Source: Minisyncoccia bacterium
GTDB taxonomy: Bacteria > Patescibacteriota > Minisyncoccia > Phycocordibacterales > UBA5272
Direction of reading: 5' to 3'
NCBI GenBank assembly: GCA_038256975.1
Contig: JBBSJU010000002.1
Span: 65,064-129,063 of the forward strand
DNA length: 64,000 nucleotides
This document shows positions 4,008-22,272 of the stretch, piece after piece. Position numbers and translations under genes: made by a program. How positions within the stretch are numbered: the stretch's first letter is position 1; each line of letters opens with the position of its first letter. The notes beneath the pieces were generated by a model, which saw only the letters and a list, made by a program, of their open reading frames with translations, searched no databases and was not told where the DNA came from.

Positions 4008-4051
4008 AATTGCGAGCTACTTACCATTACTGGTTTTCACCCGCAGTTGCT

Positions 4052-4624
4052 TCAGGACATGCCCTTGGTGGGGATCGGCACGATGCCGACGATGGAGCGG
4101 TTGACCTGCTTGAGCTCGCCGGAGGCCAGGCGCTGGTCGAGGTCGTTGTTCACGGCCAGGAGGAGCTTGGTCTCGTAGGCGAGGCCGCTCGTCTTGTAGT
4201 CGTCGAACGTGACCAGACCGGTCTTCAGAGCGTACGCGTCGATGTCGCCGATGCCGAGCATTGCAGCCTTGTCGGTCACACTGACCACCTCGGTCTCGGC
4301 CAGGCGTTCCGGCGTCGTGACCTTGTGCTTCAGCGCGACTGCCTTCAGCGTGTTGTACTCGGCCTGGTAGCGGACGAGGACCGTCTTGGCGGACGGACCG
4401 AAGAACGTCGCCAGATCGGTGATCGCCTTGATTTCGTCGTTCACCGCGATGGCGACGTTGCTGTCGAGCTTGCCGAAGAGGTTGATGTCCGTGTTCTGGT
4501 TGAAGGTCGTCGCAATCTGCTCGCCACTCACCGTATCGACGGCGACAGCGGCGTTGGCAGCGGTGCCTGCGACAGCCAGCGAGATGGCCATGGCAAGAAC
4601 GATCGTACGGGTGTTCGTCTTCAT
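4052..4624 (-). CDS. secreted protein of unknown function (signal peptide) encoded in the GC-rich islet
   Basis: 190 aa. N-terminus MKTNTRTIVLAMAISLAVAGTAANAAV fits a Sec signal peptide. Codon usage is high-GC, unlike the neighbouring genes. Confidence 0.55.
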   Translation of the reverse strand: MKTNTRTIVLAMAISLAVAGTAANAAVAVDTVSGEQIATTFNQNTDINLFGKLDSNVAIAVNDEIKAITDLATFFGPSAKTVLVRYQAEYNTLKAVALKHKVTTPERLAETEVVSVTDKAAMLGIGDIDAYALKTGLVTFDDYKTSGLAYETKLLLAVNNDLDQRLASGELKQVNRSIVGIVPIPTKGMS

Positions 4625-4887
4625 CGGGTATTTCTCCGTTTTGGGTTGGTTGGTGGCGCCAGCATCGCAATCGACTGTGTCGGTTTAGCGAGTAGCAGGG
4701 TAGGTACCTTAAAAAGATACGCACTCTGCTACTCGCTACTGCCTAATTGATTAAGTGAAAGAGCTAAAAATAAAAACGAGCTCACTTGAGCTGTTGAACA
4801 ATATAGCAGGGTACTAAGTTTTTGTCAAACATTTTATGGACAATCCAAAAATCCGTTGTATTTCAAGGATTAATTAGTAAGAATACC

Positions 4888-5221: not shown

Positions 5222-5743
5222 TTACAATTGTGAATCTGTATAAGCATAAGACAGTTTGTTGTATTCATCTGTATGATAAGAGCAAATACCTTTATTATTC
5301 CAAAGTAAGAATTCAGAAATACCTACATCAAGTGCGAATCTGCTACACACGGTGCAATACGGCTCTCCTGACTTTTTTATATTTCCGTCCTTATCAACTC
5401 GAGTGAAATATAATTGAGAACCCTTTAAGTCTTCAGGATTTTTCTTTATTGCATCGAGAATAGCTCTCCATTCTGCGTGCATGCAACAGGTATGATCGTA
5501 TTTTGGTTTTCCTGGAAACTCATAAGTATCCAAGCATGTGCGATTATTCTCGTTATCAAGCGGAGGAGCATTATATCCTTCACCTATAATTTCTCCGTCT
5601 TTTACGATTACCGTTCCACACTTTGCTTTGAGACAAAGAGCTTTCTCGGCGACCTTAGCCGCCTCATTCATCCACTCGATCGCCTGTTCTTCTTCTGTGT
5701 TTTGCAAATATTTCATGGCAGTTTGAATCCCTTTATGGCTCAC
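5222..5743 (-). CDS. CMP/dCMP-type zinc deaminase (dCMP deaminase-like)
   Basis: HAEWRAI (H-x-E zinc/catalytic motif) and PCTVCS (PC-x-x-C) motifs. 173 aa. Confidence 0.7.
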   Translation of the reverse strand: MSHKGIQTAMKYLQNTEEEQAIEWMNEAAKVAEKALCLKAKCGTVIVKDGEIIGEGYNAPPLDNENNRTCLDTYEFPGKPKYDHTCCMHAEWRAILDAIKKNPEDLKGSQLYFTRVDKDGNIKKSGEPYCTVCSRFALDVGISEFLLWNNKGICSYHTDEYNKLSYAYTDSQL

Positions 5744-5768: not shown

Positions 5769-5858
5769 TGGCGGAGACGGAGAGATTTGAACTCTCGAAC
5801 AAGTTGCCTCGTTGCTTGTTTTCGAAACAAGTGCCTTCAACCACTCAGCCACGTCTCC
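5769..5858 (-). tRNA. tRNA-Ser (anticodon CGA), type II, with encoded CCA
   Basis: Minus-strand sequence GGAGACGTGGCTGAGTGGTTGAAGGCACTTGTTTCGAAAACAAG...GAGAGTTCAAATCTCTCCGTCTCCGCCA. 7-bp acceptor, Ser-type D-loop, anticodon loop UUCGAAA, long variable arm, T-arm GAGAG/UUCAAAU/CUCUC. Confidence 0.8.
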
Positions 5859-5925
5859 AAATTCCATATACGTTATAACAGTTTTATTGTCTTTTTTCAA
5901 AAATGTAGTATATTTGGATGTATTC

Positions 5926-5997
5926 GGCCCTATCGTCTAATGGTTAGGACAGCGGGTTTTCAATCCGTCAATCGGAGTTCGACTCTCCGTAGGGTCA
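5926..5997 (+). tRNA. tRNA-Glu (anticodon TTC)
   Basis: GGCCCTATCGTCTAATGGTTAGGACAGCGGGTTTTCAATCCGTCAATCGGAGTTCGACTCTCCGTAGGGTCA. Glu-like D-arm, anticodon loop UUUUCAA, T-arm CGGAG/UUCGACU/CUCCG. 72 nt, no encoded CCA. Confidence 0.8.
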
Positions 5998-6174
5998 CAT
6001 TAGTATCAATCTTCGAACATATGGTGACGGTCAAGAACGCCTTGCAAAAGCAAGGTGTTCTTGATGTGTGCCTGCCATCACGGTTACCGTGATGGTCGGT
6101 ATCCACAGACACTTGAAGAAAACTCGAATTTCTTTGCTAGGAATGTGTAAGGGTGGTAACCACACCCGCAATCA

Positions 6175-6370
6175 TATGGAGCAACAACAACCAACACCAC
6201 GGAAGGTACATCTTGAAGCAGAACGCGAACGCGCACGTAGAGCAATCCGTGAAGTCATCGACGGATTCGACTCTGTAGAAAAGACAACGTTCCCACCAAG
6301 ACGTCCTCTCGGAAGAGTCAAGAAGTCAGTACCGGCAGCTCCTCTATGGGATGCTTTGATGAAGCTCTAG
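6175..6370 (+). CDS. hypothetical small protein (start uncertain; the listed ORF begins at 6068 but its 5' part overlaps two strong hairpins)
   Basis: ORF 6068..6370. Internal ATG at 6175 (MEQQQPTPRK...). Arg/Lys-rich. No family recognised. Confidence 0.25.
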
Positions 6371-6391
6371 GTGAATTCATTCAGTGATTGA

Positions 6392-6437
6392 CCCCGAAGA
6401 AACCCGCGACGTGTGCACGGGTTTCTTCGGGGTCTTT
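6392..6437. terminator. bidirectional intrinsic terminator between convergent genes
   Basis: CCCCGAAGAAACCCG (11-nt loop) CGGGTTTCTTCGGGG, followed by TCTTT. Confidence 0.6.
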
Positions 6438-6454
6438 AATAAACACAGAAAACT

Positions 6455-7033
6455 TTAACCAACCTGTCTGACCCAATCTCTGGTAATGCTTTCAATTCGC
6501 TCTTGCTCTAATTCAGGTAAGACGTTCGTATGCATGATGATGTTTCTTGAGAGCTCAAGATCATTAAATCTAGAGTTGACCCACGCTTGATCTGGGAAAA
6601 GATCAGAGAAATCTTCCCAGTTTCCAATTATTATCTGAGCCAGATTTCCGAACATAGTATAATAAATTAAAGATGAAGATGAAGACCTTTGCGTGTGGTA
6701 TTTATTTTTTGCTTCCTTTTCTTTTAAACCACTAGCTGCCTTTTTAACTCTTTCAGGAACACATAAATCCCACCAACCTAAACCTTGCCGCTCTGCTAGC
6801 CGAGTAGATATCAGTTCTCTGGCAGAGTTTTCCAAGCAGAAAAAGGCCACATATACTGACGCCATCTTTTCAGCATCATGGACCAGAACTGGATTAAAGT
6901 CATTTTCTTCAATTCTGGCTAACGGGCTAACATCAACATGTAAACCGATTCCCGTGTTTTCCAGCTTTTTCAACTCGTCTTGTGCTAGAAAACCATCGAA
7001 GACTAACCTTTTAAGGTGGCTTATTTTTTTCAT
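6455..7033 (-). CDS. HEPN-motif protein (R-x4-H near C-terminus); putative RNase toxin/abortive-infection effector
   Basis: 192 aa. The C-terminal helix carries LSRNIIMHTNV (R-x4-H), the HEPN catalytic signature. The start codon shares a nucleotide with the stop of the upstream partner at 7033. Confidence 0.5.
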   Translation of the reverse strand: MKKISHLKRLVFDGFLAQDELKKLENTGIGLHVDVSPLARIEENDFNPVLVHDAEKMASVYVAFFCLENSARELISTRLAERQGLGWWDLCVPERVKKAASGLKEKEAKNKYHTQRSSSSSLIYYTMFGNLAQIIIGNWEDFSDLFPDQAWVNSRFNDLELSRNIIMHTNVLPELEQERIESITRDWVRQVG

Positions 7034-7644
7034 TATTCCAATAAGTTATCTCTAATGCTTTTGAAGATAGAATTATAAACACTCACGTCCGTGGTAGCGG
7101 GTAAGTGAATCTGAATGTTGTAATGAAACTCTGCAGGAAGTCCAGAAACAACGAGTGGTTTTTCTTTTCGAATCCCTTCCTCGCTTTCTTTAAAGTCAGT
7201 TTTAATTTCTTTTGGTTGAGGAGAGTCACCAAATTTAGATAATCCAACAAGTGCTTTGAATGTATTGTAATACCGTCCAACAGTCGCCTCATCCTTACCT
7301 GTAATTCGAGAAAATGCCCCCTTTATCTCAACCTCTGATGCCTTATGGATTTCTTGGTCTGTTGCAAATAAATCTTTATATAAATCAATGACTCTTTCGC
7401 CCATTACGTATTGATGTTGAGAGGCATCTTTTAGCCGATCATACGAATCAGTGGGAGTTGCAGCTTCTGTTAGAAAACCTAGTTTCTTTAAAAGAGGAAT
7501 TATGGCTCTATCATTGGAACTACCAAACCCCATTTGCTTAAGAAACTCATTTGTATACTTTATTGGCCTAGCGGCAGCTTTTGCTTTCTGAAAAAAAGCA
7601 GGAAGTCTGTTATTGGAAATAACGTATGGATATGTGTCAGTCAT
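7033..7644 (-). CDS. partner of the HEPN-motif protein (hypothetical; possible antitoxin/sensor)
   Basis: 203-aa ORF that overlaps the downstream HEPN gene by one nucleotide. No known domain recognised. Confidence 0.45.
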   Translation of the reverse strand: MTDTYPYVISNNRLPAFFQKAKAAARPIKYTNEFLKQMGFGSSNDRAIIPLLKKLGFLTEAATPTDSYDRLKDASQHQYVMGERVIDLYKDLFATDQEIHKASEVEIKGAFSRITGKDEATVGRYYNTFKALVGLSKFGDSPQPKEIKTDFKESEEGIRKEKPLVVSGLPAEFHYNIQIHLPATTDVSVYNSIFKSIRDNLLE

Positions 7645-7892
7645 GTTTTATATTTAGACTTATTATTCTATATAATAATCTTATACCTCATAGCAATATA
7701 AATCAATGAGTCAGATATTATGTCAACTATGGGGTGCTGTCCGGTATTGGATTAGTATTTTCACTATTGGAATCAAGTACTTCACGCACTGCAGTTCGAC
7801 ATCTGTCTCGATTAGGTTCACAAATACAAAAAAGAGCTACGACCACAAAGTGCAAAATGGCGATATAATCAGTATATAGCCTTAATTACGTC

Positions 7893-8618
7893 ATGAAATA
7901 CTTTAATGTAACCCAAGAAGAAATCGACTTGAGAATGTTCAATATTTTTGTTGGAATAAGTCTTGGTAACAAATTGCTAACTCCTGAACTTTGTAAACAT
8001 TATGTAGAGTGGGCACACAGAAATACAAAAGATAATTGCGTTATATTAATAGCTGATAAAATAGATGCCGTTAACTGGCAAATTTTTAGAGGGCTTTCTA
8101 GAGAAGAGTCTTTGGAGAAAGTAAAAGATAAAGGGTATGGAATTTTAGGCATGTTTGAAAAAGCAAAGAGAACTCTCGCCAAAGAAAAAGAAGATGCGAG
8201 CTACATTTCCAGGGTACATATTATATTTTGGGAAGATATAGTTAATGAAGGCTATACGGAACTCAGAAAAATATTAAATGATGAATACGAAAATAATTTA
8301 GAATTCAAAGAAAGAGTATTGTATTTTGTGAATAAATACTGCGAACTGAGAGATGTTAGTATTCTGTCAGCCGAAGATAAAGATAAGTTGGCTGGCTATA
8401 TTATTGATGAGTTACCGACGCTAATTGGTGGAATATATTGGGATGAAAAGTTGTATAACATGATATTGTATCCAACATACGTAGACAGCGGGATGAGTGA
8501 ATTTGTTTTAGATATTCGTGGTGGGAAATATTTTCATGCAGATAAATTAAAATTAAGACAAATCTGTGTTCTTGTTGAAGACTATCTAGAAAAACCTAAA
8601 ACTATTGAAAAAGAATAG
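7893..8618 (+). CDS. tRNA-dependent cyclodipeptide synthase (CDPS) homologue
   Basis: 241 aa. FNIFVGISLGNKL matches the CDPS Rossmann pocket motif (AlbC IGISAGN, YvmC VGISPFN; catalytic Ser in G-I-S). GYIIDELPTLIGG matches the catalytic Y-x-x-x-E-x-P block (AlbC NYVLAEAP, YvmC EYVIAELPFFIG). W-A...D-x-I...ID spacing resembles AlbC QWAGQRFERTDVVYVDTHID. Confidence 0.65.
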   Translation: MKYFNVTQEEIDLRMFNIFVGISLGNKLLTPELCKHYVEWAHRNTKDNCVILIADKIDAVNWQIFRGLSREESLEKVKDKGYGILGMFEKAKRTLAKEKEDASYISRVHIIFWEDIVNEGYTELRKILNDEYENNLEFKERVLYFVNKYCELRDVSILSAEDKDKLAGYIIDELPTLIGGIYWDEKLYNMILYPTYVDSGMSEFVLDIRGGKYFHADKLKLRQICVLVEDYLEKPKTIEKE

Positions 8619-8659
8619 ACGCACAATAAAGATTAGAGTGATGTAGTAAAATCAAAACG

Positions 8660-9277
8660 TTAATCTCCGTAGGTACTTCTCACGGCTTCTTTTCCTAATT
8701 GAGTATGTAAATTAATAAGAATTTTATGGTTTGATCCGTAGGACTTTTTTATTTTTGTATTCTGGTCTTCAAAATATTTTTCAGCTTCTTGTTTGGTTTT
8801 AAAAGTTGGTTTTAAAGCAGTCCCACCATTTAGAACGTGTGTTATTTTCGGCATACACTTATCGAGTGTTTTGATAAATTTTGCTTCTTCTGTATCGAGT
8901 GACTCATATTCTTGTATTGTGTTGTGAATCCAAGGGAATACTTCTTCAAATTCTGATGTAATTCTTAGGAGGGCTTCGTGTTCCACCTTGTCTTTCTTTT
9001 TCATTCCTTCATCTGAGATAGTAAGTGTTGGTGTATCACCAGCATATGCTTCGACTAGATCATGAATTAATGCGAACTGAGCAACTTTACCAAGGTCAAG
9101 ATGTGGGGCGTACGAACTTGCAATTGCGCAAGCACAGAGCCCTAACATAATGGTGTGGTCTGTGTCTGATTCAGGAGTTATTCCATCTTCGTGGAAAGTG
9201 ATCCGATTTGTTCTGGCAAAGAAGAGTGAAAGTTGTCCGAGTTCTACAACTTTCCCGGTCATTTTTTCTATATCCAT
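8660..9277 (-). CDS. HD-domain phosphohydrolase, YfbR-like 5'-deoxynucleotidase
   Basis: ESDTDHT (H..HD metal site) and IHDLVEAYAGDTPT. The overall YfbR pattern fits at 205 aa. Confidence 0.7.
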   Translation of the reverse strand: MDIEKMTGKVVELGQLSLFFARTNRITFHEDGITPESDTDHTIMLGLCACAIASSYAPHLDLGKVAQFALIHDLVEAYAGDTPTLTISDEGMKKKDKVEHEALLRITSEFEEVFPWIHNTIQEYESLDTEEAKFIKTLDKCMPKITHVLNGGTALKPTFKTKQEAEKYFEDQNTKIKKSYGSNHKILINLHTQLGKEAVRSTYGD

Positions 9278-9344
9278 CTATTTATACTACGGCATCTCTA
9301 AAAACTCGCAAGTTTCGTTTGCTATACTCTGTTATAATCTATAC

Positions 9345-9737
9345 ATGCCTTCACTTTGGTACGAAATGCTTGTAAAACCTTCCTGGACTCCATCTGGAGA
9401 AACAATTGGGCTTATCTGGACCATTCTTTATCCGATTATTATTTTCTGTTTTCTATGGGTTTGCATAAGGGCATTCAAAGGGCAAATACCAATGATGATA
9501 TTTTGGGTTTTTCTTGTAAATGCGATTGCAAACATTATCTTTACTCCAATTCAGTTTGGACTTCAAAACCTTCCTCTTGCAGCAGTCGATATTCTTGTAG
9601 TCTTAGGTACTATTATTGCCAGCATGGTTCTCATCTTTCCATATTCAAAATTAATTTTTGCACTGCAGATTCCATACTTGGTTTGGGTGTCTATTGCTAC
9701 TTTTTTACAACTCTCGATTACGTGGATGAATAGGTGA
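9345..9737 (+). CDS. tspO: TspO/MBR family tryptophan-rich sensory protein
   Basis: MPSLWYEMLVKPSWTPSGETIGLIWTILYP matches the TspO N-terminal consensus. Five predicted TM helices. The ATG at 9345 was chosen because the upstream part of ORF 9150.. overlaps the HD gene on the opposite strand. Confidence 0.7.
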   Translation: MPSLWYEMLVKPSWTPSGETIGLIWTILYPIIIFCFLWVCIRAFKGQIPMMIFWVFLVNAIANIIFTPIQFGLQNLPLAAVDILVVLGTIIASMVLIFPYSKLIFALQIPYLVWVSIATFLQLSITWMNR

Positions 9738-9738
9738 T

Positions 9739-10107
9739 ATGAAAGACAAGGGTTTTGCAGAGTATGTTGTAGGGGATTTGTTCGGCTATCTCGATGATGT
9801 TTCTGCTCGAGCAATGTTTGGTGGTTATGGAATATACAGAGGCGGGGTAATGTTTGGACTCATTGCTGAAGGAGAGTTGTATTTTAAAGTAAGGGAGGGG
9901 GAAACTAAAAAATATGAGCCTTTTGGCAGTAAACCATTTCACTATAGTCGTAAAGATAAAGGAGCAATTACAATGTCATATTGGTGCATACCTGAAGAAG
10001 TTCAAGAAGATCCTCATTTGTTTCGTGAATTGGCTGAAGAATCCTATGAGTTTGCGCTTGAAAAAGCCGTCAAAAAGAGCTCAAAAAAGAAAGTGGTGCG
10101 GAAGTAG
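9739..10107 (+). CDS. TfoX N-terminal domain protein
   Basis: FGGYGIYRGGVMFGLIAEGELYFKV resembles the TfoX_N domain. 122 aa. Confidence 0.45.
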   Translation: MKDKGFAEYVVGDLFGYLDDVSARAMFGGYGIYRGGVMFGLIAEGELYFKVREGETKKYEPFGSKPFHYSRKDKGAITMSYWCIPEEVQEDPHLFRELAEESYEFALEKAVKKSSKKKVVRK

Positions 10108-10142
10108 AAATAATCGGGAAAATGCGTATAATAGGGAAGTCT

Positions 10143-10229
10143 GGAGGATTGGATGAGTGGTTTAAATCAGCGGTTTACTAAACCGCCGACGGGTAAAACT
10201 GTCCGTGAGTTCGAATCTCACATCCTCCG
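10143..10229 (+). tRNA. type-II (Ser-like) tRNA; a canonical 7-nt anticodon loop UUACUAA gives anticodon ACU
   Basis: GGAGGATTGGATGAGTGGTTTAAATC A GCGGT TTACTAA ACCGC, a 19-nt variable arm, GTGAG TTCGAAT CTCAC, ATCCTCC G. 7-bp acceptor, Ser-type D-loop (GAGUGGUU.AA), perfect T-arm. Confidence 0.7.
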
Positions 10230-10388
10230 CTCGTGTAAAAAAGCCCTAACAAGGGCATTTTTTATTGAGCGGAGGATAGAAAGTGCTTAATGCACTTTCG
10301 TGTGAGATTCGAAAAGCTTTCCGTTATTTGTGAGGAGCTTTACTCCGAACAAATCGGAAAGGTGTACTGCTCCTGTAAGGAGAGAAAT

Positions 10389-10403
10389 TCTCACATCCTC
10401 CGC
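10389..10403 (+). repeat. direct repeat of the tRNA 3' end (TCTCACATCCTCCGC), att-like, copy 2
   Basis: 15/15 identical to tRNA positions 10216-10230. Followed by CTAAGA, as in copy 3. Confidence 0.6.
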
Positions 10404-10468
10404 ACTAAGAACTTAGTATCGGCATGACCCTAGTACCTAAATTCGTAGATTTAAGTTAAAATTAAGCA

Positions 10469-10858
10469 ATGGAAAACCGAAGTTCACAAATTTGGATAGT
10501 ACTCATCGTTATCGCAATTATTGCAGGTGGTGCTTATTGGCTTGGAAATTCTCAAAATACCAACGACCAAACTATTGATGTAAAAACAGACATCTCTATT
10601 AAATCTACGACTGCACAGGTCGGTACTTTTTATGATGGCAAAGATGGTTACTCGCTTTCTATTCCAAGCGGAAATTCTTCAACATGTGTCTGGACGTATA
10701 CTGGAGGAAACGCAGCTATTCCATATTCAGAAACAACATATGCAAGAAGTGCGACTGAAAAACACACTATCTACTCTTATGATTACTACGATTGGAAAGT
10801 TTCTTGTGTAGACGATTTTGGAAATCAGTACACAGGTATATTCCCAAAGATCGAATAA
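10469..10858 (+). CDS. hypothetical secreted/membrane-anchored protein (within att-bounded islet)
   Basis: 129 aa with an N-terminal TM/signal helix (IWIVLIVIAIIAGGAYWLG). Thr/Tyr-rich. Confidence 0.4.
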   Translation: MENRSSQIWIVLIVIAIIAGGAYWLGNSQNTNDQTIDVKTDISIKSTTAQVGTFYDGKDGYSLSIPSGNSSTCVWTYTGGNAAIPYSETTYARSATEKHTIYSYDYYDWKVSCVDDFGNQYTGIFPKIE

Positions 10859-10866
10859 ATTATTTT

Positions 10867-11484
10867 ATGGAAAATAATACAGATGAAATAATCAATTTAA
10901 GCATTGAACAGTTTCAAGAATTTCACGAGAAATTAGGCTCAGAGAATTTCCAGCTCCAGTCTCGAATATTTGAAGATTACGGAAAAAAGAAATTGGATAT
11001 CTATTTTAAATCTATTGGGTTTACCACTGTCGTTATTGGTACAGCAGGACTTATTGCAGGATTCGGATTTACAGCAATCAGTCAAATTCAAAGCGAACTT
11101 CTCTTTTTTGTAGGAGAGGCCCTACTACTGAGTTCTATTTTCTATGGTCTATTCTGGATTCAAAACATATACCAAGGTGAATTTAGATCAATTGAGGAAG
11201 AAATAAAAAGACTCAGGGAGTTTTATGACAAAAGAAATGAAAAGTATATGGTTCTTTACAACGAGTGGATGTCGAAGAAAAGCATCACTAAAAACAATCT
11301 TAAGCAGCTTCAAGAGTTTGAAAACAAATCAATTGATTTGTTTAAGACTCCAACACAGGTTTCTGTTCCAGTCATTTACTCTCCCGTCATGTACGGTCTG
11401 ATGACGTTCGGTGCCGCGGCTCTCTTAGGTTCGTTCTTTATCTACAGTCTGTTATTCAACATTTGTCATCTCTTCTTTCTTTAA
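10867..11484 (+). CDS. hypothetical membrane protein (within att-bounded islet)
   Basis: ORF 10792..11484. ATG 10867 was chosen to avoid overlap. Two to three TM segments, with a coiled stretch between them. Confidence 0.4.
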   Translation: MENNTDEIINLSIEQFQEFHEKLGSENFQLQSRIFEDYGKKKLDIYFKSIGFTTVVIGTAGLIAGFGFTAISQIQSELLFFVGEALLLSSIFYGLFWIQNIYQGEFRSIEEEIKRLREFYDKRNEKYMVLYNEWMSKKSITKNNLKQLQEFENKSIDLFKTPTQVSVPVIYSPVMYGLMTFGAAALLGSFFIYSLLFNICHLFFL

Positions 11485-11746
11485 AGAAAGATATCCCGAC
11501 TCACATGCCTCAGCAAGACACTCCAAAAAGCGCTAGAATATCTTTATAAGGCTTGAGAGCGTGGGTACTGAACTCACATGGCCCGCCAAACCAAAATTCC
11601 ACACTTTCTTTAGGTGTGGAATTTTGTGTTTCAAGCGGTATGACGGCGAGATTCGAAAGCCGGACTGAAGCCACTATATGAGTAAAGCGAATTGTGGCGA
11701 AGGAGGCGGGGTCGCGCAAAATTTGTGAAGCAAATTTATGTGTGAC

Positions 11747-11767
11747 CGAATCTCACATCCTCCGCTC
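11747..11767 (+). repeat. direct repeat of the tRNA 3' end (CGAATCTCACATCCTCCGCTC), att-like, copy 3
   Basis: 21/21 identical to tRNA 10212-10232. It closes a roughly 1.35-kb segment that begins at copy 2. Confidence 0.6.
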
Positions 11768-11794
11768 TAAGATAAGCAAAAAGCAGGTATCTGT

Positions 11795-12382
11795 TTAAGA
11801 AAGGGGTGCAAACAACTGCTTTAATTCTGTATATTTTGCAGGATCTAGTAGTGCCTCATAGAGATTTGGAATAATTTCTTTTTCCATAAACCTTCCATCT
11901 CTACCAATTTGAAGCATCTCGTCAAAACTAACGGGTTTTAGTTCAATCTTTTCTCCGCCATCGAGTGCTTGATCTGCAACTTTTCTGCAACCTTTTGCGA
12001 TAAAGAAGTAAACAACCCAATCAATCTTTGATGTAGGATGAGCTGCCTTCCAAAGTATGTATTCTTTTGCTTCGTATCCAGTTTCTTCGAGAAACTCACG
12101 TTTTGCAGCTTCCAAGATGTCTTCATTTTCTTCTACACGACCTCCACAAGCCCCAATGAAAGGTTTCTTTCCTGGTTGCTCTTGCTCAGTTAATAATATT
12201 TTTCCGTCATCAAGTACTGGAAACACGACTACCGTATCTGGTCGCTTGAGTTTTTCAAATATTTTTGTTGTTCCATCGTACATTAACTGTTGCCATTGGT
12301 AGACATCAAAGATTTTTCCTTTGTAGATACATTCTGCATGACCTGGAATCGGTTGGTTTGAGATTGGGCGTTGGATAGTCAT
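11795..12382 (-). CDS. NUDIX hydrolase (ADP-ribose pyrophosphatase-like)
   Basis: Nudix box GGRVEENEDILEAAKREFLEETG. Confidence 0.8.
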   Translation of the reverse strand: MTIQRPISNQPIPGHAECIYKGKIFDVYQWQQLMYDGTTKIFEKLKRPDTVVVFPVLDDGKILLTEQEQPGKKPFIGACGGRVEENEDILEAAKREFLEETGYEAKEYILWKAAHPTSKIDWVVYFFIAKGCRKVADQALDGGEKIELKPVSFDEMLQIGRDGRFMEKEIIPNLYEALLDPAKYTELKQLFAPLS

Positions 12383-12424
12383 ACTACTTAATTTAATTAT
12401 CTTAGTTATGTTTGTGCTAGCTAA

Positions 12425-13123
12425 TTAAGAACTTTTCTCTATCTCCTCAATTGACTTATTCCTGTGAATTATTTCATCGTTGCGAACTGAAAGGAAAAAT
12501 TCATACTGATTTTTTGGTTCACGTCCGTACCACTTCAAAAAGTCACTATGGATAGATTTGTTTTTAAGTTCATCGCCTCGTTTTTCTAAAAAGCGACTGT
12601 ATTGCTCAAAAGCATGACTTTCGAATAAGAAGTTAAGTTCATACGAGTACCGAGGGTTAATAACGTATAAAAAATATGACGCCCAAAAGTAAAAGAAGGC
12701 AAAAAGCATTGGGATAAGGGTGTGACGGATTATTCCTGCACATTCTTCTTTCTCTGCAAGCTTGGAAATGACGACCACGTGCATCGTCTCGTTATCCTGG
12801 GCTATTTGAGCAAATTGAGCCACATCTGATAGCTGGAGCGCCTTTTTCTCATGAGAGTAAAAAAGGGTTAAAAGAGTGTAAACAGACGAAGCCCAAGAAT
12901 GATAGGGCACACGAGCAATTACTTCAACCGAGCGAAACTTTAAATATGATGGTTCTTTTCCGTACACAAAATTTCCACACCACACAAGAAATTTTCCGAG
13001 TAAGAGCGGTAGCAGACTTGGTTGGTAAGAGTCGTAACTTGTTTTGTATTCTTTGAGGAAAGAATCATCATTAAGTTTTTGGTTGAGCACTTCAAGCTCT
13101 TCGTTGTTTCGCTGTAATTCCAT
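12425..13123 (-). CDS. alternative oxidase / plastoquinol terminal oxidase-like di-iron carboxylate protein
   Basis: Four-helix di-iron ligand pattern: EVIARVP (E), NETMH (E-x-x-H), FESHAFEQYSRFL (cf. AOX LEEEAIHSYTEFL), RNDEIIHRN (cf. AOX RADEAHHRDVNH). Confidence 0.5.
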   Translation of the reverse strand: MELQRNNEELEVLNQKLNDDSFLKEYKTSYDSYQPSLLPLLLGKFLVWCGNFVYGKEPSYLKFRSVEVIARVPYHSWASSVYTLLTLFYSHEKKALQLSDVAQFAQIAQDNETMHVVVISKLAEKEECAGIIRHTLIPMLFAFFYFWASYFLYVINPRYSYELNFLFESHAFEQYSRFLEKRGDELKNKSIHSDFLKWYGREPKNQYEFFLSVRNDEIIHRNKSIEEIEKSS

Positions 13124-13657: not shown

Positions 13658-15406
13658 TTACATTGTCACCACTTGGCGAGAAATGAGTCGTTTGTACGGC
13701 TCGCATTCTTTTGCAAGTTCTTCGTGTGTACCAATACCTGCAATTTGCCCATGGTCCATAACGATTATTTGGTCTGCATCTCGTACTGTAGAAAGGCGGT
13801 GGGCGATAATGATACCGGTGCGACCCTTGAGGGCATCTTTCATTGCGTCATGGATTAGAGCTTCATTTTCAGCATCGAGGCTACTTGTCGCTTCGTCGAA
13901 GATAAGGATTGAAGGGTTTTTAATTAAGGCACGTGCAATACCAACACGTTGGCGTTCGCCACCAGAGAGCTTCACACCTTTTTCACCGATGATAGTGTCG
14001 TAACCGTGTTCAAGACGATCAAAGAATTGGTCAATGCGAGAAAGTTTCGCGACACGGTCTAAATCTTTTTCCGCTTCAGCCTTCTTTTCCTCTGCGACAC
14101 CGAAAAGAATATTATATTTAAGAGTTTTGTCGAAGAGTTCCACATGTTGTTCTACATAACCAATACTTCTTCGATACTCTTCGAGATTGATGTCTCGTAA
14201 GTCTGTGTCATCAATGGTAATAGAGCCGGACGTTGGGTCAAACGCTCGCAAGAGAAGCTGAATGATGGTTGTTTTTCCAGCGCCAGAGTGCCCAACAAGG
14301 GCATAGGTTTTGCCTGATTCGAATGACAGACCTAAATTCTCTAAAGCTTTTTGTTTTTCAACTCCAGGATAGATAAAGTTAATTTTATTTAGATGAATGT
14401 TCTTAAAGTTAGGATTATAGGGAATAACTCCTGATTTTTCTTCAAAGAGAGGTTTCTCATTGAGTAATCCAAACAACGCAGCAATCTGTGATGTCTGAAG
14501 TAGTATTCGTCTAAAGTATCCATTTACTTCACCGAGGCGGTTGAATACCATGTTGCCCCAGAAAATGATAGGAATGAGTGAGCCCGGAGTCAGAGCTTTT
14601 TGATATACCAAATACAACGCAAGACAAAGGATCCCAACTTTCGCTATGGCTCCAAATAAATCACGTCCGTGCATGACTTGTACATTTTTTATCCATATTC
14701 GCTCACTTTCACGCGCTAGTATTTCCCAGGTGGTCAGCAGATCATTTGAGGTCTGCTTCTCAGTACCGCTCATTTTAATGAGTGTGGCGTAGCGTAAAAA
14801 CTCAGAGTGGTTTTTATTTATTACATCCCACTCGTCATTGTTTTTAGAAACTTTTTTATAAAAACGCGGTGTCCATAAACCAATGAGAGTAAAGGGGACA
14901 CAAATCGTAATGGTGATAAACCATCCCAACAAAGGGTCTATAAAGAAAAACATTCCAATCGCAATAAAGATGAAAAGAAGCGTCGGAATGAGCTCAGAAA
15001 AAAGCATATAAATAGTGTTTTCAAGTGCTGACTCTCCTTTTTGAATAACTGTTTGCTTTAGTCCAGAATGTTTAAGAAGCGTTTGTCCAGCGGGCATATT
15101 ACTCAAGAGCTCGTAGGTTTTTTCTCGAACAGTATGAGGGACTATGTATTCAATTTTCTTAACCTCATATGTTGTTTTGGCATAGGAAAGTAGAATACGC
15201 CCTATTTCTACAGTAAGGAGGAGCCAGACAAGATTGAAAAGTGTGTCGGTGGTTGTTTGGGTAATTAATCCGTCTACCAACTTACCACTTATATATGGAA
15301 AAGCGATACTTGAAAGCTGTATAAGTAAGGTAAGTAAAAAAAGAAAAGAGAGCTCTTTTTTAAATAGTTTTATATAGATTGAGGTTGTTGAGAGAAAATT
15401 TTTCAT
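13658..15406 (-). CDS. ABC transporter, fused permease/ATP-binding (MsbA-like exporter)
   Basis: Six N-terminal TM helices. Walker A GHSGAGKTT, signature LSGGERQRVGIARAL, Walker B ILIFDEATSSLD. Confidence 0.85.
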   Translation of the reverse strand: MKNFLSTTSIYIKLFKKELSFLFLLTLLIQLSSIAFPYISGKLVDGLITQTTTDTLFNLVWLLLTVEIGRILLSYAKTTYEVKKIEYIVPHTVREKTYELLSNMPAGQTLLKHSGLKQTVIQKGESALENTIYMLFSELIPTLLFIFIAIGMFFFIDPLLGWFITITICVPFTLIGLWTPRFYKKVSKNNDEWDVINKNHSEFLRYATLIKMSGTEKQTSNDLLTTWEILARESERIWIKNVQVMHGRDLFGAIAKVGILCLALYLVYQKALTPGSLIPIIFWGNMVFNRLGEVNGYFRRILLQTSQIAALFGLLNEKPLFEEKSGVIPYNPNFKNIHLNKINFIYPGVEKQKALENLGLSFESGKTYALVGHSGAGKTTIIQLLLRAFDPTSGSITIDDTDLRDINLEEYRRSIGYVEQHVELFDKTLKYNILFGVAEEKKAEAEKDLDRVAKLSRIDQFFDRLEHGYDTIIGEKGVKLSGGERQRVGIARALIKNPSILIFDEATSSLDAENEALIHDAMKDALKGRTGIIIAHRLSTVRDADQIIVMDHGQIAGIGTHEELAKECEPYKRLISRQVVTM

Positions 15407-16444: not shown

Positions 16445-17674
16445 CTACTTTCGTCGTCGCAGGAATGCGGGAACTGCACCCCAGTCATCAGTATCGTCTT
16501 CAATAACATTAACCACATCTCCTTGCTTTTGTGTTGAATTAGAGTTTGCTGTGCTTGTTGCTTCTTTTTTTGTCTCTATTTCTTGAACAGGAAGAACATT
16601 ATGAATCTCTTTTCGTTCTAGCTCAGGATTCCTATTAATCGGCTGCTGCATTGATGACTGAATTTGAGAGGCATTCATGTTGCCACCAAAAAGTGGGGTT
16701 GTTCGCTTGTTGCCACTTATCGTAGGGAAGCCAGTTGCGATAACGGTAACCTTAACTTCATCTTTTTTAAGCGTATCGTCTTTGAATGCACCAAAGATAA
16801 TCTTTGCATCTTTGTCGACTGATTCAGTAATAATCTTGGCTGCCTCTTGAACTTCAAAGAGTGAAAGATCATCACTTCCTGAAATAGCAAAGAGTACTCC
16901 GCGAGCTCCATGAATAGAAACATCGAGTAATGGGGAATTGATGGCCGCATGAGCCGCCTCGACTGCTCTGTTTTCTCCCGCTCCTCGCCCTACACCCATG
17001 AGCGCTGTTCCTGAATCTTGCATTACTGCCCGTACGTCTGCGAAGTCAACGTTCATGATTCCAGAGTTTGAGATAAGCTCAGAAATTCCTTCCACTGCCT
17101 GCTTTAATACCTCATCACACATTGCAAAAGCATCTTTAAGGGATGTGTTTTTATCTACTGCTGCAAGAAGCTTGTCGTTCGGAATAACAATAAGAGCATC
17201 AACATTTTGCTCAAGCTCAGCTAATCCCTGCTCCGCGATCTTCATTCGTTGCGCACCTTCGAAGAAGAATGGTTTTGTTGTGACTGCAACCGTGAGCACA
17301 CCTTCGTCTTTAGAGATTTTTGCAATTGTTGGCGCCGCGCCTGTTCCTGTTCCACCACCCATACCACAAGTGATGAATACCATGTCTGCACCCTTCACTG
17401 CATTTTGGATTTCTTCTTTTGTTTCTTCTGCGGAACGTTTTCCTACATCAGGATTCATTCCTGCACCGAGACCCTTGGTGAAGTTTTTACCAATATGAAT
17501 TTTTCGTTCAGCAAGACAATTGTGGAGGTCTTGGACGTCAGTATTTACCGCGATAAATTCTACGTTTTTAACACGCGATTCAATCATGTGATTAATTGCT
17601 CCCTTTCCTGAACCCCCGACACCAATAACTTTAATTCTGGCAAAATTTTCGATTTCTGGATTGATTTTTGGCAT
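16445..17674 (-). CDS. ftsZ: cell division protein FtsZ
   Basis: GVGGSGKGAINHM, tubulin signature GGGTGTGAAP, C-terminal tail. Confidence 0.9.
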   Translation of the reverse strand: MPKINPEIENFARIKVIGVGGSGKGAINHMIESRVKNVEFIAVNTDVQDLHNCLAERKIHIGKNFTKGLGAGMNPDVGKRSAEETKEEIQNAVKGADMVFITCGMGGGTGTGAAPTIAKISKDEGVLTVAVTTKPFFFEGAQRMKIAEQGLAELEQNVDALIVIPNDKLLAAVDKNTSLKDAFAMCDEVLKQAVEGISELISNSGIMNVDFADVRAVMQDSGTALMGVGRGAGENRAVEAAHAAINSPLLDVSIHGARGVLFAISGSDDLSLFEVQEAAKIITESVDKDAKIIFGAFKDDTLKKDEVKVTVIATGFPTISGNKRTTPLFGGNMNASQIQSSMQQPINRNPELERKEIHNVLPVQEIETKKEATSTANSNSTQKQGDVVNVIEDDTDDWGAVPAFLRRRK

Positions 17675-17789
17675 AAAATATTACAATAAACGCACGTGTT
17701 TTTGAATAGCTATATAGTATCAGAAAGGTGTGTCAAGCACAAAAGGATCGGAAGGAAAGAGAAAGATGACATTTTCAATATCTGTGTTA

Positions 17790-18965
17790 TTACGGTAGGA
17801 ACTGTTTGAAGAATTGAATAATTGCTCGGAAAGTCTGAGAGAGTGTTTCCGTAGCGCTTCCAACACGTCCCACCGAAGCGTCACTTTGGAGGAGTGCAAG
17901 CCCACAAGCAACTCCAAGATTTGGATCTTTAATCTTGCCTTTTGTTATGGTTGTAAGCTCTTGAGAGTCTGTGGTTACAGGAATGCGTAAGATATCTTTA
18001 GCAATTTCAAGAATGAGTTTCTGATTAGAGCCACCACCGAGGAGAATGGCACCTGCAGGAAGTAATCCACTACGGTGGATTTTTCGTAACTGCGTATCAA
18101 GGAGTTCAAAAATATCAGTGGTGCGCGCACGGACAATCTCATCTATCTTTCGTTTTGAAACAATGCCTTCGTAGGAACCACGTTTCATTTTTTCTGCGTC
18201 TTCAATAGAAACTTTAAGTCCAAGAGCAATATCGTTGGTGATATCGTTACTTCCTATTTGAACGGTGTGTACGAGAAGGGGAACAGAGTGTTCGTATACT
18301 ACCATGGTCGTTGTCTCTGCGCCGATATCAATAACTGCTGAGCCAGTGGTGCGTTCCTTTTTTGAAAGTACACATAAGCTTGTTGCAATAGGACTTGCAA
18401 TTGTATCGTCCACATCAACACCGAGTGATTCAAAGATTGCGTGGAGCTCCTCTATTTGCTGCTCAGGATAGATAACGAAGAGTGTTTTTACTTCAAGTTT
18501 TCCACCGATGAGACCGAGTACTTTTGCAAGTACGTCTTTATTATCGAGCTTCCATTTTTGTGGAATTACGTGAAGAATCTTTTGATTTTTTTGCTCACCC
18601 AGCGTGTCTTCTGAATTTTGTATAGCACGGTTTGTATCAAGGGTAGTAACTTGGCTATCAGCACGTGTAATTACTGCGTGTCCTGTGCCTTGAATTGAAG
18701 TAAGTCCAAGGCCGTGAACACCAACCACAACTCGAGTAATGGGGTATCCTGACTGTTTGCTTGCAAGAGAAAGCGCGCGCTCTATTGAACGGGTAACATC
18801 AGGAGTTGAATCTATATATCCGCGACGCATCCCATTGTTTTCAACTGTTATGACCGCACGAATGCTTGGATATGTGTCATGTTCGGCACGCTCACCAACG
18901 ACCACTTTTATGTAAGAGGTGCCGATATCAATTCCGGTCACTATAGTCGTATGGGTTCGTGGCAT
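17790..18965 (-). CDS. ftsA: cell division protein FtsA
   Basis: Actin-like ATPase fold (VTGIDIGTSYIKVVVGE..., ILLGGGSNQ). The ATG at 18965 is preferred over the TTG at 18974. Confidence 0.85.
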   Translation of the reverse strand: MPRTHTTIVTGIDIGTSYIKVVVGERAEHDTYPSIRAVITVENNGMRRGYIDSTPDVTRSIERALSLASKQSGYPITRVVVGVHGLGLTSIQGTGHAVITRADSQVTTLDTNRAIQNSEDTLGEQKNQKILHVIPQKWKLDNKDVLAKVLGLIGGKLEVKTLFVIYPEQQIEELHAIFESLGVDVDDTIASPIATSLCVLSKKERTTGSAVIDIGAETTTMVVYEHSVPLLVHTVQIGSNDITNDIALGLKVSIEDAEKMKRGSYEGIVSKRKIDEIVRARTTDIFELLDTQLRKIHRSGLLPAGAILLGGGSNQKLILEIAKDILRIPVTTDSQELTTITKGKIKDPNLGVACGLALLQSDASVGRVGSATETLSQTFRAIIQFFKQFLP

Positions 18966-19032
18966 GTGGAGCAAATTGTTTTAAGTACTTTTGTTCTTGT
19001 TTCTCCATTGTACTCCCTTGTTAGTATCCTTT

Positions 19033-19359
19033 CTAATGAAGACAACTGTGGATGAAGAGAAAAAGAATAAAATCACGATATGAAAGAGAATACTCTTTTG
19101 CTTGTAAACGCATTACTTTAAGTGACATGTAGATCTCACCTGTATTTTGTGAAAGAGGGAATGCTAAGGTGTTCGGGGTGTATAGTTTTTTCCGATGTGT
19201 TTTATTGAGATGCTGGATATTTTTTTCAGTGCTGAATATCAAATGTAACGTGTATTTTTTGCCGAGTATTTTTTGCGTAACATCAAAAAACGGTAAGGAC
19301 GGAATTGTCCCTACCGTTTCTCGAATGATTGTAATTTGTTCTTTCTCTAACGTTGTCAT
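19033..19359 (-). pseudogene. ybeY: ybeY-like endoribonuclease gene, truncated: the zinc motif is interrupted by in-frame stops
   Basis: The N-terminal region matches YbeY (KYTLHLIFSTEKNIQHLNKTHRKKLYTPNTLAFPL). The ORF ends ...IHSCLH-TAG. The same frame continues as K-G-Y-TAA, a degenerate version of HGxLHLxGYDH. It is only 108 aa. Confidence 0.45.
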
Positions 19360-19362
19360 TTT

Positions 19363-19614
19363 TTATCGTCGGCCTTTCTTTTTCGGAGGAGTGAGTTTGC
19401 CGAGCTTCTTTAAGCGGTTGTACGTTTTTGTTCGTCCGATCTTGAGGAGTTTTGCCTTCTTTACTTTGAGAGGAGAAAGTGCGCGTGTAGCATATCGCTG
19501 GCTTCGTTTCTTCGGGATGATTCCTGACTCCTGAACTCTTTTTGTGAATCGTCGAAGTGTACCTGCTGCTGGTTCATTCTGTCCTTGTTTTATTTCTACG
19601 TAAGCGGTTGGCAT
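19363..19614 (-). CDS. rpsU: 30S ribosomal protein S21
   Basis: MPTAYVEIKQGQNEPAAGTLRRFTKRV matches the bS21 N-terminus. Basic C-terminus. The start is taken at the second Met (19614). Confidence 0.7.
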   Translation of the reverse strand: MPTAYVEIKQGQNEPAAGTLRRFTKRVQESGIIPKKRSQRYATRALSPLKVKKAKLLKIGRTKTYNRLKKLGKLTPPKKKGRR

Positions 19615-19722
19615 AAGTAACCATATTTTTACCACATTCACGTTTGTTTTGCAATGATAAAGGGCGTTTAAGTAATGTTATTTGACATTAAGATGGTTTC
19701 TTGAGATGAATGAGGATACCCA

Positions 19723-20181
19723 ATGTTGGGTGTTCTTTTGGAGTTTGTCATGATAATCCGTAGAGGTGATATGGGAAACGGCGCTACCCTCTCCCTTGAG
19801 GCGTGTGGGCAAGGAAACTACTTGATCATGGCTGGTAGTGGATCAAGGAATGAGCTTGGTGAATATCGTTTTGTCGAATTCACCAGAAGTGGCTCCAAAT
19901 CACCGGAGACATGCGGGGTATTGGCTGTACTGCGACAACAGTTGATGTTTTGTGGGCAGGAGGATCGTCGAGGCATTATTTCTTACGAGACAGAAGGAGG
20001 GTGTCTTCAGGTTATGCAGGATAAGGATGGGGATGAGTATGTGCGCACTGTTGGTCTGGGTGTTGATACCGAAGTACGTCCTCTTCGTCTCACACCACAA
20101 AATACCTCGGAGTTAGTTCGGGAAACCATCATTAACCTCCTTCATGCAATGAGGGTAGATGAAGGTAAATACCCACAATGA
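19723..20181 (+). CDS. hypothetical protein (moderately GC-enriched)
   Basis: 152-aa ORF with its own downstream terminator. No family recognised. Confidence 0.4.
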   Translation: MLGVLLEFVMIIRRGDMGNGATLSLEACGQGNYLIMAGSGSRNELGEYRFVEFTRSGSKSPETCGVLAVLRQQLMFCGQEDRRGIISYETEGGCLQVMQDKDGDEYVRTVGLGVDTEVRPLRLTPQNTSELVRETIINLLHAMRVDEGKYPQ

Positions 20182-20203
20182 ATGAAATGTCTGCAGAAAC
20201 AGA

Positions 20204-20240
20204 AGAGCCCACGATGGTCGTGGGCTCTGTTTATTTTGTC
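20204..20240. terminator. bidirectional terminator between the 19723 gene and hisS
   Basis: AGAGCCCACGA tgg TCGTGGGCTCT, then GTTTATTTTG. Confidence 0.6.
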
Positions 20241-21538: not shown

Positions 21539-21579
21539 AGTGTATACCAACTCTTCTACATATCGATTACTGTTTCAGT

Positions 21580-22272
21580 TTACGGGGTTTTAGTTAAAAC
21601 GTCCACTGAGCCAGGAAAAAGTGATATCTGGGTGAATGGATAGAGGCGTACGAGCGTTCTTCCAATGATTTGCGTTCGTTTAATGGGGCCGATTTGCCGT
21701 GAATCAAGGCTCAGTGGTCGATTGTCTCCCATCATGAAGTATTCATCTGCGCCGAGCGTCAAAACCTTTTTTGTTCGCCCGTCTGTATTTTTAATGTACG
21801 TCTCATTGAGTATAAGCCCTTCAGGATGAGTATTGTTTGTAACGATGGTGGTTGTGCCATCAATAGTGATCTGTTCTCCTGGAAGCCCAATGATCCGTTT
21901 AATGAGGTATCGGTTGCCATTTTCTGGACCAGATTTGAATACTACTACGTCACCACGTTTAGGTTCTTCCAAAAAAGTGTATGAGAATCGATCGACAATA
22001 ATGTAATCGTATGGTTCAAACGTCGGTACCATCGAAGTTTGCTGTACGAGAAATGGTTGAATAAGGAAGGTTTTAATAATCGTAAAGAAAAATCCAACTG
22101 TCGCAATAAAACGGAGCACTTCTTGAACCTTTGCGTACCATGCCGCACGTCGTGCCACAGCGCGTTCCTCCTTTGTTTTCCTCAGGTTGTATAAAATAAA
22201 AAAGAACTCAAGAATCTGATCTGCTATCCAGTCCAGGGGGTTTCGCATAAAATATTTTCTATAGTGTATCAT
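21580..22272 (-). CDS. lepB: signal peptidase I
   Basis: N-terminal TM anchor, SMVPT (catalytic Ser box), LIKRIIGLPGEQI, GDNRPLSLDSR. Confidence 0.8.
   Translation of the reverse strand: MIHYRKYFMRNPLDWIADQILEFFFILYNLRKTKEERAVARRAAWYAKVQEVLRFIATVGFFFTIIKTFLIQPFLVQQTSMVPTFEPYDYIIVDRFSYTFLEEPKRGDVVVFKSGPENGNRYLIKRIIGLPGEQITIDGTTTIVTNNTHPEGLILNETYIKNTDGRTKKVLTLGADEYFMMGDNRPLSLDSRQIGPIKRTQIIGRTLVRLYPFTQISLFPGSVDVLTKTP

Follow-up and report, generated by a model that had tools for sequence, protein, structure and literature searches.

We analyzed a predicted tRNA-dependent cyclodipeptide synthase (CDPS) gene at positions 7893 to 8618 of a 64,000-nucleotide stretch (referred to here as the window) of contig JBBSJU010000002.1 from a Minisyncoccia bacterium (GCA_038256975.1). 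A preliminary description, made from the sequence alone, had placed a 241-residue open reading frame (ORF) with CDPS signature blocks at this position. The ORF and both of its main blocks are present, i.e., VGISLGN (residues 20 to 26, containing Ser23) and YIIDELPTLIG (residues 169 to 179, containing Tyr169 and Glu173). The other reported segment, W-A..D-x-I..ID, was also found (W40-A41 ... L52-I-A-D55-K-I-D58; LIADKID spans residues 52 to 58), though the pattern is loosely defined; its functionally relevant residues are L52 and A54, which line substrate pocket P1, and D55, the counterpart of D58 in the characterized enzyme ParcuCDPS. The gene is AT-rich, as had been noted, with a G+C content of 31.8% versus 41.0% for the window (second lowest among 69 ORFs of at least 100 residues; z = -2.0) and 27% at third codon positions (z = -1.1 among the same ORFs). 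Its setting likewise agrees with the earlier account of a gene between a HEPN module and an HD hydrolase near tRNA genes: HEPN_Swt1 and DUF5343 genes lie upstream, an HD_3 gene lies downstream, and there are three tRNA genes.

Regarding family membership, the protein scored above the cutoff of NCBIfam TIGR04539 (47.3 bits versus 45; E = 1.8e-12; residues 11 to 180). Pfam PF16715 matched 42 of the 43 aligned members of its clade at E <= 1e-3 (best, 3e-14), and it is among the precomputed matches of a database entry with the identical sequence (P0001). A phmmer search against PDB sequences returned the ParcuCDPS series (7QAQ and others) as the best match (E = 7e-17; residues 8 to 216). A profile of the clade reached 3e-29 against ParcuCDPS, and all 17 matches below 0.01 were CDPSs. 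Modeling of the 43-sequence alignment with AlphaFold2 gave a structure with a mean pLDDT (predicted local distance difference test score) of 92.3 and a pTM (predicted template modeling score) of 0.88. When this model was compared with the PDB by Foldseek, the best 50 matches were all CDPSs, with ParcuCDPS at the top (TM scores, 0.72/0.78), followed by YvmC, BtCDPS, Fdum-CDPS, Rv2275, and AlbC. By these matches to CDPS structures, the modeled fold is Rossmann-like and related to the catalytic domains of class-Ic aminoacyl-tRNA synthetases. At 241 residues, compared with 233 to 248 residues in its relatives, the protein is complete.

The active site of ParcuCDPS consists of S26, Y167, E171, and Y191, together with D58, which is hydrogen bonded to the serine (Sutherland et al., PMC7613923). 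Changes of S26, D58, Y167, or E171 abolish or greatly lower its activity (PMC7613923). HMMER and MAFFT alignments placed S23, D55, Y169, E173, and Y193-P194 of the window protein at S26, D58, Y167, E171, and Y191-P192 of ParcuCDPS, respectively, so that the Ser, Tyr, and Glu residues put forward as catalytic in the preliminary description align with residues proven in that enzyme. Their AlbC counterparts are S37, which lies in the G-x-S-x-G-N loop and gives rise to the aminoacyl-enzyme, Y178, and E182. Four of these sites (S23, Y169, E173, and Y193-P194) were invariant in the 43 homologues and in 29 independent loci, and D55 was conserved in >90%. The Tyr-Pro pair at residues 193 and 194 (AlbC positions 202 and 203), which is Tyr-His in NYH enzymes, assigns the protein to the XYP subfamily; AlbC position 40 corresponds to Asn26. 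By sequence and structural model, the ORF is an intact CDPS of the XYP subfamily. The identification as a tRNA-dependent CDPS is upheld by the TIGR04539 score, the exclusively CDPS matches in the PDB and Foldseek searches, and the aligned catalytic residues, and the structural comparison, which had been proposed with YvmC and AlbC as references, recovered both.

The closest known system in sequence and structure is ParcuCDPS (PDB 7QB8 and the 7QAQ series), which makes cyclo(His-Pro) and cyclo(His-Glu). It shares with the window protein a host from the candidate phyla radiation (CPR), the XYP subfamily, the Ser-Asp dyad (S26/D58, equivalent to S23/D55), and a similar length. The NYH enzymes AlbC, YvmC, and Rv2275 have the same fold (Foldseek TM scores, 0.59 to 0.77) and the same Ser/Tyr/Glu/Tyr logic but carry His after the second catalytic Tyr, where the window protein has Pro. 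In addition, these three enzymes are embedded in the albonoursin, pulcherriminic acid, and mycocyclosin clusters with cyclodipeptide oxidase or P450 tailoring genes, whereas the window CDPS has no adjacent tailoring genes.

For CDPSs, a table of the pocket-lining residues was published by Gondry et al. in 2018 (PMC5816076, Supplemental Data Set 4). P1 comprises AlbC positions 33, 35, 65, 67, 119, 185, 186, and 200, and P2 comprises AlbC positions 152, 155, 156, 159, 204, 206, and 207 (PMC5816076). We mapped them onto the window protein via ParcuCDPS; this mapping regained the published motifs of ParcuCDPS (GAYAWELY/FEWKYTR) and of KKQ51042.1 at locus L020 (FGLPWMLL/IENSGSK). The P1 motif of the window protein is FGLAWTLI (F19, G21, L52, A54, W113, T176, L177, and I191), and its P2 motif begins with FKYLT (F145, K148, Y149, L152, and T195). 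The last two P2 positions follow the Tyr-Pro pair and depend on the alignment register, being VD when ungapped or SG in the MAFFT alignment. The FGLAWTLI/FKYLT pair was common to 23 of the 43 clade members, and the others differed at one or two residues. By motif comparison, the same P1 motif and the same first five P2 residues occur in OHB23997.1, a parcubacterial entry of the 2018 catalogue that belongs to the same clade; its last two P2 positions were published as ID, compared with VD or SG (by register) in the window protein. In the papers available for searching, we found no characterization of the clade and no mention of OHB23997 or its motif.

The nearest characterized P1 motif is FGLAWSLL of CDPS 91, with six of eight residues identical to FGLAWTLI and two conservative replacements (Ser to Thr and Leu to Ile); in the published table, OHB23997.1 directly follows this enzyme. 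CDPS 91 is an XYP enzyme from the gammaproteobacterium Methylovulum miyakonense that produces cyclo(Phe-Phe) (51%), cyclo(Phe-Tyr) (36%), cyclo(Phe-Leu) (8%), and cyclo(Phe-Met) (3%) (PMC5816076). Its P2 motif (LNYSTYA) is dissimilar to FKYLT. A formal specificity group does not exist for the CDPS 91 motif. The pockets of ParcuCDPS (GAYAWELY and FEWKYTR) also differ from those of the window protein (FGLAWTLI and FKYLT..). The P1 residues Y55, E174, and Y189, which select His in ParcuCDPS, are L52, T176, and I191 here, and a His-containing product is therefore not expected. Indeed, Val or Leu at these three positions shifted ParcuCDPS to Leu or Phe (PMC7613923). By analogy, the first substrate is predicted to be Phe-tRNA or another large hydrophobic aminoacyl-tRNA and not His-tRNA, while the P2 motif, in the same comparison, gives no basis for predicting the second residue.

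The genes and features around the CDPS gene are as follows.

5769-5858, minus strand: tRNA-Ser(CGA)
5926-5998, plus strand: tRNA-Glu(UUC), whose 3' end marks the left boundary of the variable segment and which is the same in relative L030 up to the last tRNA base
6000-8660: strain-variable segment of 2.66 kb, from the tRNA-Glu 3' end to the HD_3 stop codon
6068-6370, plus strand: 100-residue ORF in the variable segment (predicted ORF only; no known function; G+C content, 50%)
6390-6434: perfect 17-bp inverted repeat, downstream of the 100-residue ORF
6455-7033, minus strand: HEPN_Swt1-type protein matching PADLOC PDC-M34B, cargo of the variable segment
7033-7644, minus strand: DUF5343 protein matching PADLOC PDC-M34A, cargo of the variable segment
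7645-7892: 248-bp divergent intergenic region between the DUF5343 gene (minus) and the CDPS gene (plus)
7647-7676: sigma-70-like match (TTTATA-18-TATAAT), a candidate promoter upstream of the CDPS gene
7893-8618, plus strand: predicted XYP-subfamily CDPS gene, 241 residues, ATG start
8660-9277, minus strand: HD_3 phosphohydrolase, convergent with the CDPS gene; a backbone gene (85% amino acid identity in L030) whose stop codon forms the right junction
9345-9737, plus strand: TspO/MBR
9739-10107, plus strand: TfoX_N
10143-10230, plus strand: tRNA-Ser(ACU)

No Shine-Dalgarno sequence was evident in the 248-bp region upstream of the CDPS gene, and an Rfam scan of the upstream sequence for T-box, riboswitch, and other RNA leaders passed only the three tRNAs. 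Promoter and terminator scans near the gene were uninformative, with matches no better than those in shuffled sequence.

We compared this neighborhood with two related contigs (L030, a 176-kb contig of GCA_031973375.1, and L031, a 40-kb contig), on which the ABC-transporter gene at window positions 13658 to 15406 has orthologues with 91% and 90% identity. The backbone was collinear, with nucleotide identities (blastn) of approximately 84% for L030 and 77 to 80% for L031. Window positions 5841 to 5999 (tRNA-Glu) matched L030 15646 to 15488 at 99%, and positions 8661 to 10230 (HD_3, TspO, TfoX, and tRNA-Ser) matched L030 15363 to 13757. Between these blocks, L030 has approximately 124 bp in place of the 2.66 kb of the window. 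The junctions were sharp: the match was perfect to the last base of tRNA-Glu, then collapsed, and resumed at the HD_3 stop codon. On L031, tRNA-Glu and TspO are separated by an Exo_endo_phos gene and a 154-residue ORF, and HD_3 is also absent. The CDPS, HEPN, and DUF5343 genes were not found by tblastn in the L030, L031, and L032 contigs. Three relatives with three contents at one tRNA-adjacent site support a horizontally variable tract. The CDPS is an accessory gene, for which we infer the mechanism and direction of the event.

The preliminary description had reported no adjacent tailoring enzymes, and this holds: no P450, cyclodipeptide oxidase, 2-oxoglutarate oxygenase, methyltransferase, or prenyltransferase gene was present within approximately 5 kb of the CDPS gene, and no recurrent partner was found in the clade. 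Across 27 CDPS loci, the only recurring neighbor families were those shared by a pair of near-duplicate contigs. When the 149 ORFs located up to 4 kb from the CDPS gene at 19 further loci were surveyed with Pfam, no P450, nitroreductase-type oxidase, or 2-oxoglutarate oxygenase was detected; the commonest families were generic (GNAT, 5; SAM methyltransferase, 4; metallo-beta-lactamase, 3; SET, 3). We conclude that the CDPS in this clade is stand-alone.

Two candidate partners were rejected as coincidental, since neither recurred over the 29 loci. A NUDIX gene lies beside the CDPS gene in L003 and L004 and approximately 3.2 kb from it in the window. A gene resembling alternative oxidase is near the CDPS gene in the window and in L028, but it belongs to the backbone in L030, which lacks a CDPS gene at this locus. 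This gene encodes a di-iron protein (PF01786; window 12425 to 13123, minus strand; L028 5775 to 6461; L030 12284 to 12976) and is probably a backbone gene. Separately, in a distant clade from CPR and DPANN genomes, the CDPS gene is abutted or overlapped by a small SET-domain gene in three loci and by a GNAT acetyltransferase gene in two (L021 8650 to 9111; L023 3194 to 3682; L015 3813 to 4247; L014 8744 to 9196; L025 7552 to 7989). These could be unrecognized partners or tailoring enzymes of the distant clade; they are absent from the clade of the window protein.

Judging from the sequence comparisons and the structural model, we consider it very likely that the gene encodes an active, stand-alone, tRNA-dependent XYP CDPS with a predicted Phe-type P1 pocket, carried as an accessory gene in the slot beside tRNA-Glu. 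The catalytic steps of CDPSs are established for the family, and we infer the same steps for the window protein. An aminoacyl-tRNA would bind, and its aminoacyl group would move to Ser23, positioned by Asp55 as in ParcuCDPS, with the first side chain occupying P1. A second aminoacyl-tRNA would bring its residue to P2, a dipeptidyl-enzyme would form with the aid of Tyr169 and Glu173, and Tyr193 would help cyclization to a 2,5-diketopiperazine. With no tailoring enzyme nearby, the pathway would end at the unmodified cyclodipeptide. The gene itself would have arrived, alone or with the PDC-M34 candidate defence pair, in the variable slot abutting tRNA-Glu.

Several observations weigh against this reading. 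The PF16715 score of the window protein (24.9 bits; E = 2e-5) is narrowly under the 27-bit gathering threshold; the expectation that CDPS profiles would recognize the protein was borne out for TIGR04539 and fell short for PF16715. The structure of ParcuCDPS, the closest relative solved so far, departs from those of other CDPSs (PMC7613923). The product prediction, drawn by analogy, depends on likeness between pocket motifs, and pocket-based prediction is less reliable for XYP enzymes, of which 73% are predictable (Gondry et al. 2018, PMC5816076). Finally, no integrase, transposase, target-site duplication, or direct repeat flanks positions 6000 to 8660, so that a deletion in the sibling lineages is formally possible instead of an insertion.

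The first two of these observations would also fit a protein that has retained the CDPS fold but lost cyclodipeptide synthesis or that catalyzes another aminoacyl-tRNA reaction (e.g., tRNA deacylation or transfer to another acceptor), as would the identity to any characterized CDPS, ParcuCDPS included, of just 21 to 25% (Foldseek). Moreover, two clade members (L006 and L029) have Asn at the Asp55 position, and the equivalent change in ParcuCDPS (D58N) leaves <1% activity. We nevertheless regard a loss of catalysis as improbable, given that the window protein has all of the known required CDPS residues, all of which save Asp55 are invariant in the clade, and that its sequence and structure matches are exclusively CDPSs. 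Strong purifying selection points the same way, with a Nei-Gojobori dN/dS (ratio of nonsynonymous to synonymous divergence) of 0.04 against the 85%-identical homologue; dS was saturated except for L028 and L007, and the ratio is usable against those two only. Furthermore, CDPS 90 and CDPS 91, which belong to the same super-clade, make cyclodipeptides.

If the gene is instead ancestral and vertically inherited, its absence from sibling genomes would reflect deletion. This explanation, to which we give even less credence, draws on the lack of a flanking integrase, transposase, or direct repeat, on the wide distribution of the clade in Patescibacteria, and on base composition: the G+C content of the CDPS gene fell below that of the flanking DNA in 23 of 25 loci (mean difference, -6 points), which makes low G+C content a family-wide trait and not by itself evidence of recent acquisition. 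Of the horizontal acquisition suggested in the preliminary description, the variable tract found by synteny with L030 and L031 stands, while AT-richness as evidence for it does not. Vertical inheritance accords poorly with three different slot contents in three related genomes and with the unrelated contexts of the nearest homologues, i.e., malic-enzyme and adenine glycosylase genes on either side of the 85%-identical homologue and MGMT and UDG genes on either side of the 74%-identical one, the flanking G+C content of the hosts ranging from 25% to 57%. In addition, CDPS identities across the CPR plateau at 65 to 73%, compared with approximately 61% for the housekeeping protein GatB, a pattern that fits lateral spread. 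These sequence comparisons suggest that the CDPS clade moves between CPR genomes.

We find it scarcely credible that the CDPS is part of a PDC-M34 candidate defence system, for example, as an effector draining or modifying aminoacyl-tRNAs during phage infection: the DUF5343 and HEPN_Swt1 proteins match PADLOC PDC-M34A (E = 1.8e-63) and PDC-M34B (E = 6.4e-65), all three genes share one 2.66-kb variable segment, and some other CDPS loci lie among toxin-antitoxin or mobile genes (e.g., L003 with PemK, rve, and SocA_Panacea), but the CDPS matched no PADLOC model, DUF5343 and HEPN homologues were found in 0 of the 29 other CDPS loci, no neighbor is conserved, and the CDPS gene is divergent from the pair and differs from it in G+C content (31.8% versus 37 to 39%). 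On the same PADLOC, co-occurrence, and neighbor results, we rejected the idea that the CDPS works together with the HEPN/DUF5343 pair and treat the two as separate cargo sharing a hotspot.

Regarding the host, the window carries housekeeping genes for TopA, GatB, DnaB, RNase R, RelA/SpoT, and SMC. Apart from several near-identical relatives from metagenomes, GatB matches leveled off at approximately 61% identity, where the named groups were Candidatus Pacebacteria and Candidatus Nomurabacteria, and relatives of the ABC transporter were named Minisyncoccia, Paceibacterota, and Patescibacteria. The assignment to a CPR-like organism is thus well founded. The suggestion that a CDPS would be unusual in such an organism, on the other hand, did not survive. 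The 2018 catalogue contains more than 10 CPR entries, from Parcubacteria, Microgenomates, Moranbacteria, Kaiserbacteria, and Buchananbacteria and, further, from Azambacteria, Zambryskibacteria, Ryanbacteria, Andersenbacteria, and Kerfeldbacteria, as well as one from an uncultured archaeon (PMC5816076). One of them, CDPS 90 (i.e., ParcuCDPS), whose source is Parcubacteria bacterium RAAC4_OD1_1, was characterized as making the two His-containing products named above (PMC5816076), was crystallized and re-engineered in 2022 (PMC7613923), and was put to biocatalytic use in 2024. The window's clade itself is large: we detected 129 relatives at E <= 1e-3 among clusters at 90%, many of them named "tRNA-dependent cyclodipeptide synthase" by their sources (NCBI or JGI), and when 1.84 billion 50% representatives were searched with a profile, 509 relatives were returned at E <= 1e-3, including 70 at E <= 1e-30.

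CDPS relatives with 31 to 41% identity were also present in metagenome-assembled genomes of DPANN archaea (Woesearchaeota and Nanoarchaeota), alongside CPR ones, with all catalytic residues conserved (L013, L015, L018, L019, L022, L024, L025, and L027). Several of these loci have the P1 motif FGLAWI[IL]H, and the "uncultured archaeon" entry AQS34941.1 of the 2018 catalogue has FGLVWILH. On L014, a contig from a Victivallales metagenome-assembled genome, two CDPS paralogues (7863 to 8657, plus strand; 14458 to 15189, minus strand) lie approximately 6 kb apart.

The existence of CPR CDPSs and their basic chemistry are already established; the present finding is incremental, and its new part is the product of this clade. 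The clade is abundant (>100 clusters at 90%), strongly constrained, and mobile among CPR genomes, and its pocket is unlike that of ParcuCDPS, the sole characterized CPR enzyme. The product of one member would stand for the whole clade and would probe pocket-based specificity prediction in XYP enzymes. Because biosynthetic capacity is minimal in CPR bacteria, any small molecule that they produce is a candidate for mediating the episymbiotic lifestyle. A broader reading, speculative and rather unlikely in our estimation, is that FGLAWTLI/FKYLT proteins form a laterally circulating, untailored CDPS clade of ultra-small episymbionts, with DPANN cousins, whose diketopiperazine, one not assigned before and probably containing Phe or Leu, could act as a signal or weapon of the symbiont toward its host or its competitors. 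In another version, suggested by the location of the gene in a defence-type variable slot, the relevant activity might be the consumption of charged tRNA in conflict with phages or competitors.

The surroundings of the tRNA genes showed further variation. A second variable slot (10231 to 12440) lies directly 3' of tRNA-Ser(ACU); it contains two ORFs for membrane proteins and a NUDIX gene in the window and a GNAT acetyltransferase gene in L030. An exact 15-nucleotide copy of the tRNA-Ser 3' end (10216 to 10230) occurs 173 bp downstream (10389 to 10403) and resembles an integration scar; it was the sole exact repeat returned when we looked for attachment-site-like repeats around the CDPS insertion. 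On L031, the region past the tRNA-Ser/tRNA-Glu pair (16829 to 21749) encodes a BNR/sortilin protein, a DUF305 protein, a P-type ATPase that carries a metal-binding domain, a metal-sensing repressor, and a large serine recombinase, which together make up a mobile element for metal resistance at this same tRNA hotspot. The L030 contig ends (15830 to 15879) 49 bp past the tRNA pair, which is consistent with an assembly break at a strain-heterogeneous hotspot. On the other side of the tRNA pair, window positions 4010 to 4750 have a G+C content of 59.5% in a 41% G+C genome and are open in several frames; this is probably foreign DNA, and it includes a likely gene (4052 to 4624, minus strand) for a 190-residue protein with a signal-peptide-like N terminus and no Pfam family.

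The tRNA-Ser at 10143 to 10230 has the anticodon ACU (loop TTACTAA) in place of the usual GCU, and this feature is conserved in L030 (13757 to 13844) and L031 (14130 to 14219). Apart from tRNA-Arg(ACG), bacterial tRNAs do not usually have A at the wobble position. A gene with a cytidine/adenosine-deaminase fold (5222 to 5743) lies nearby.

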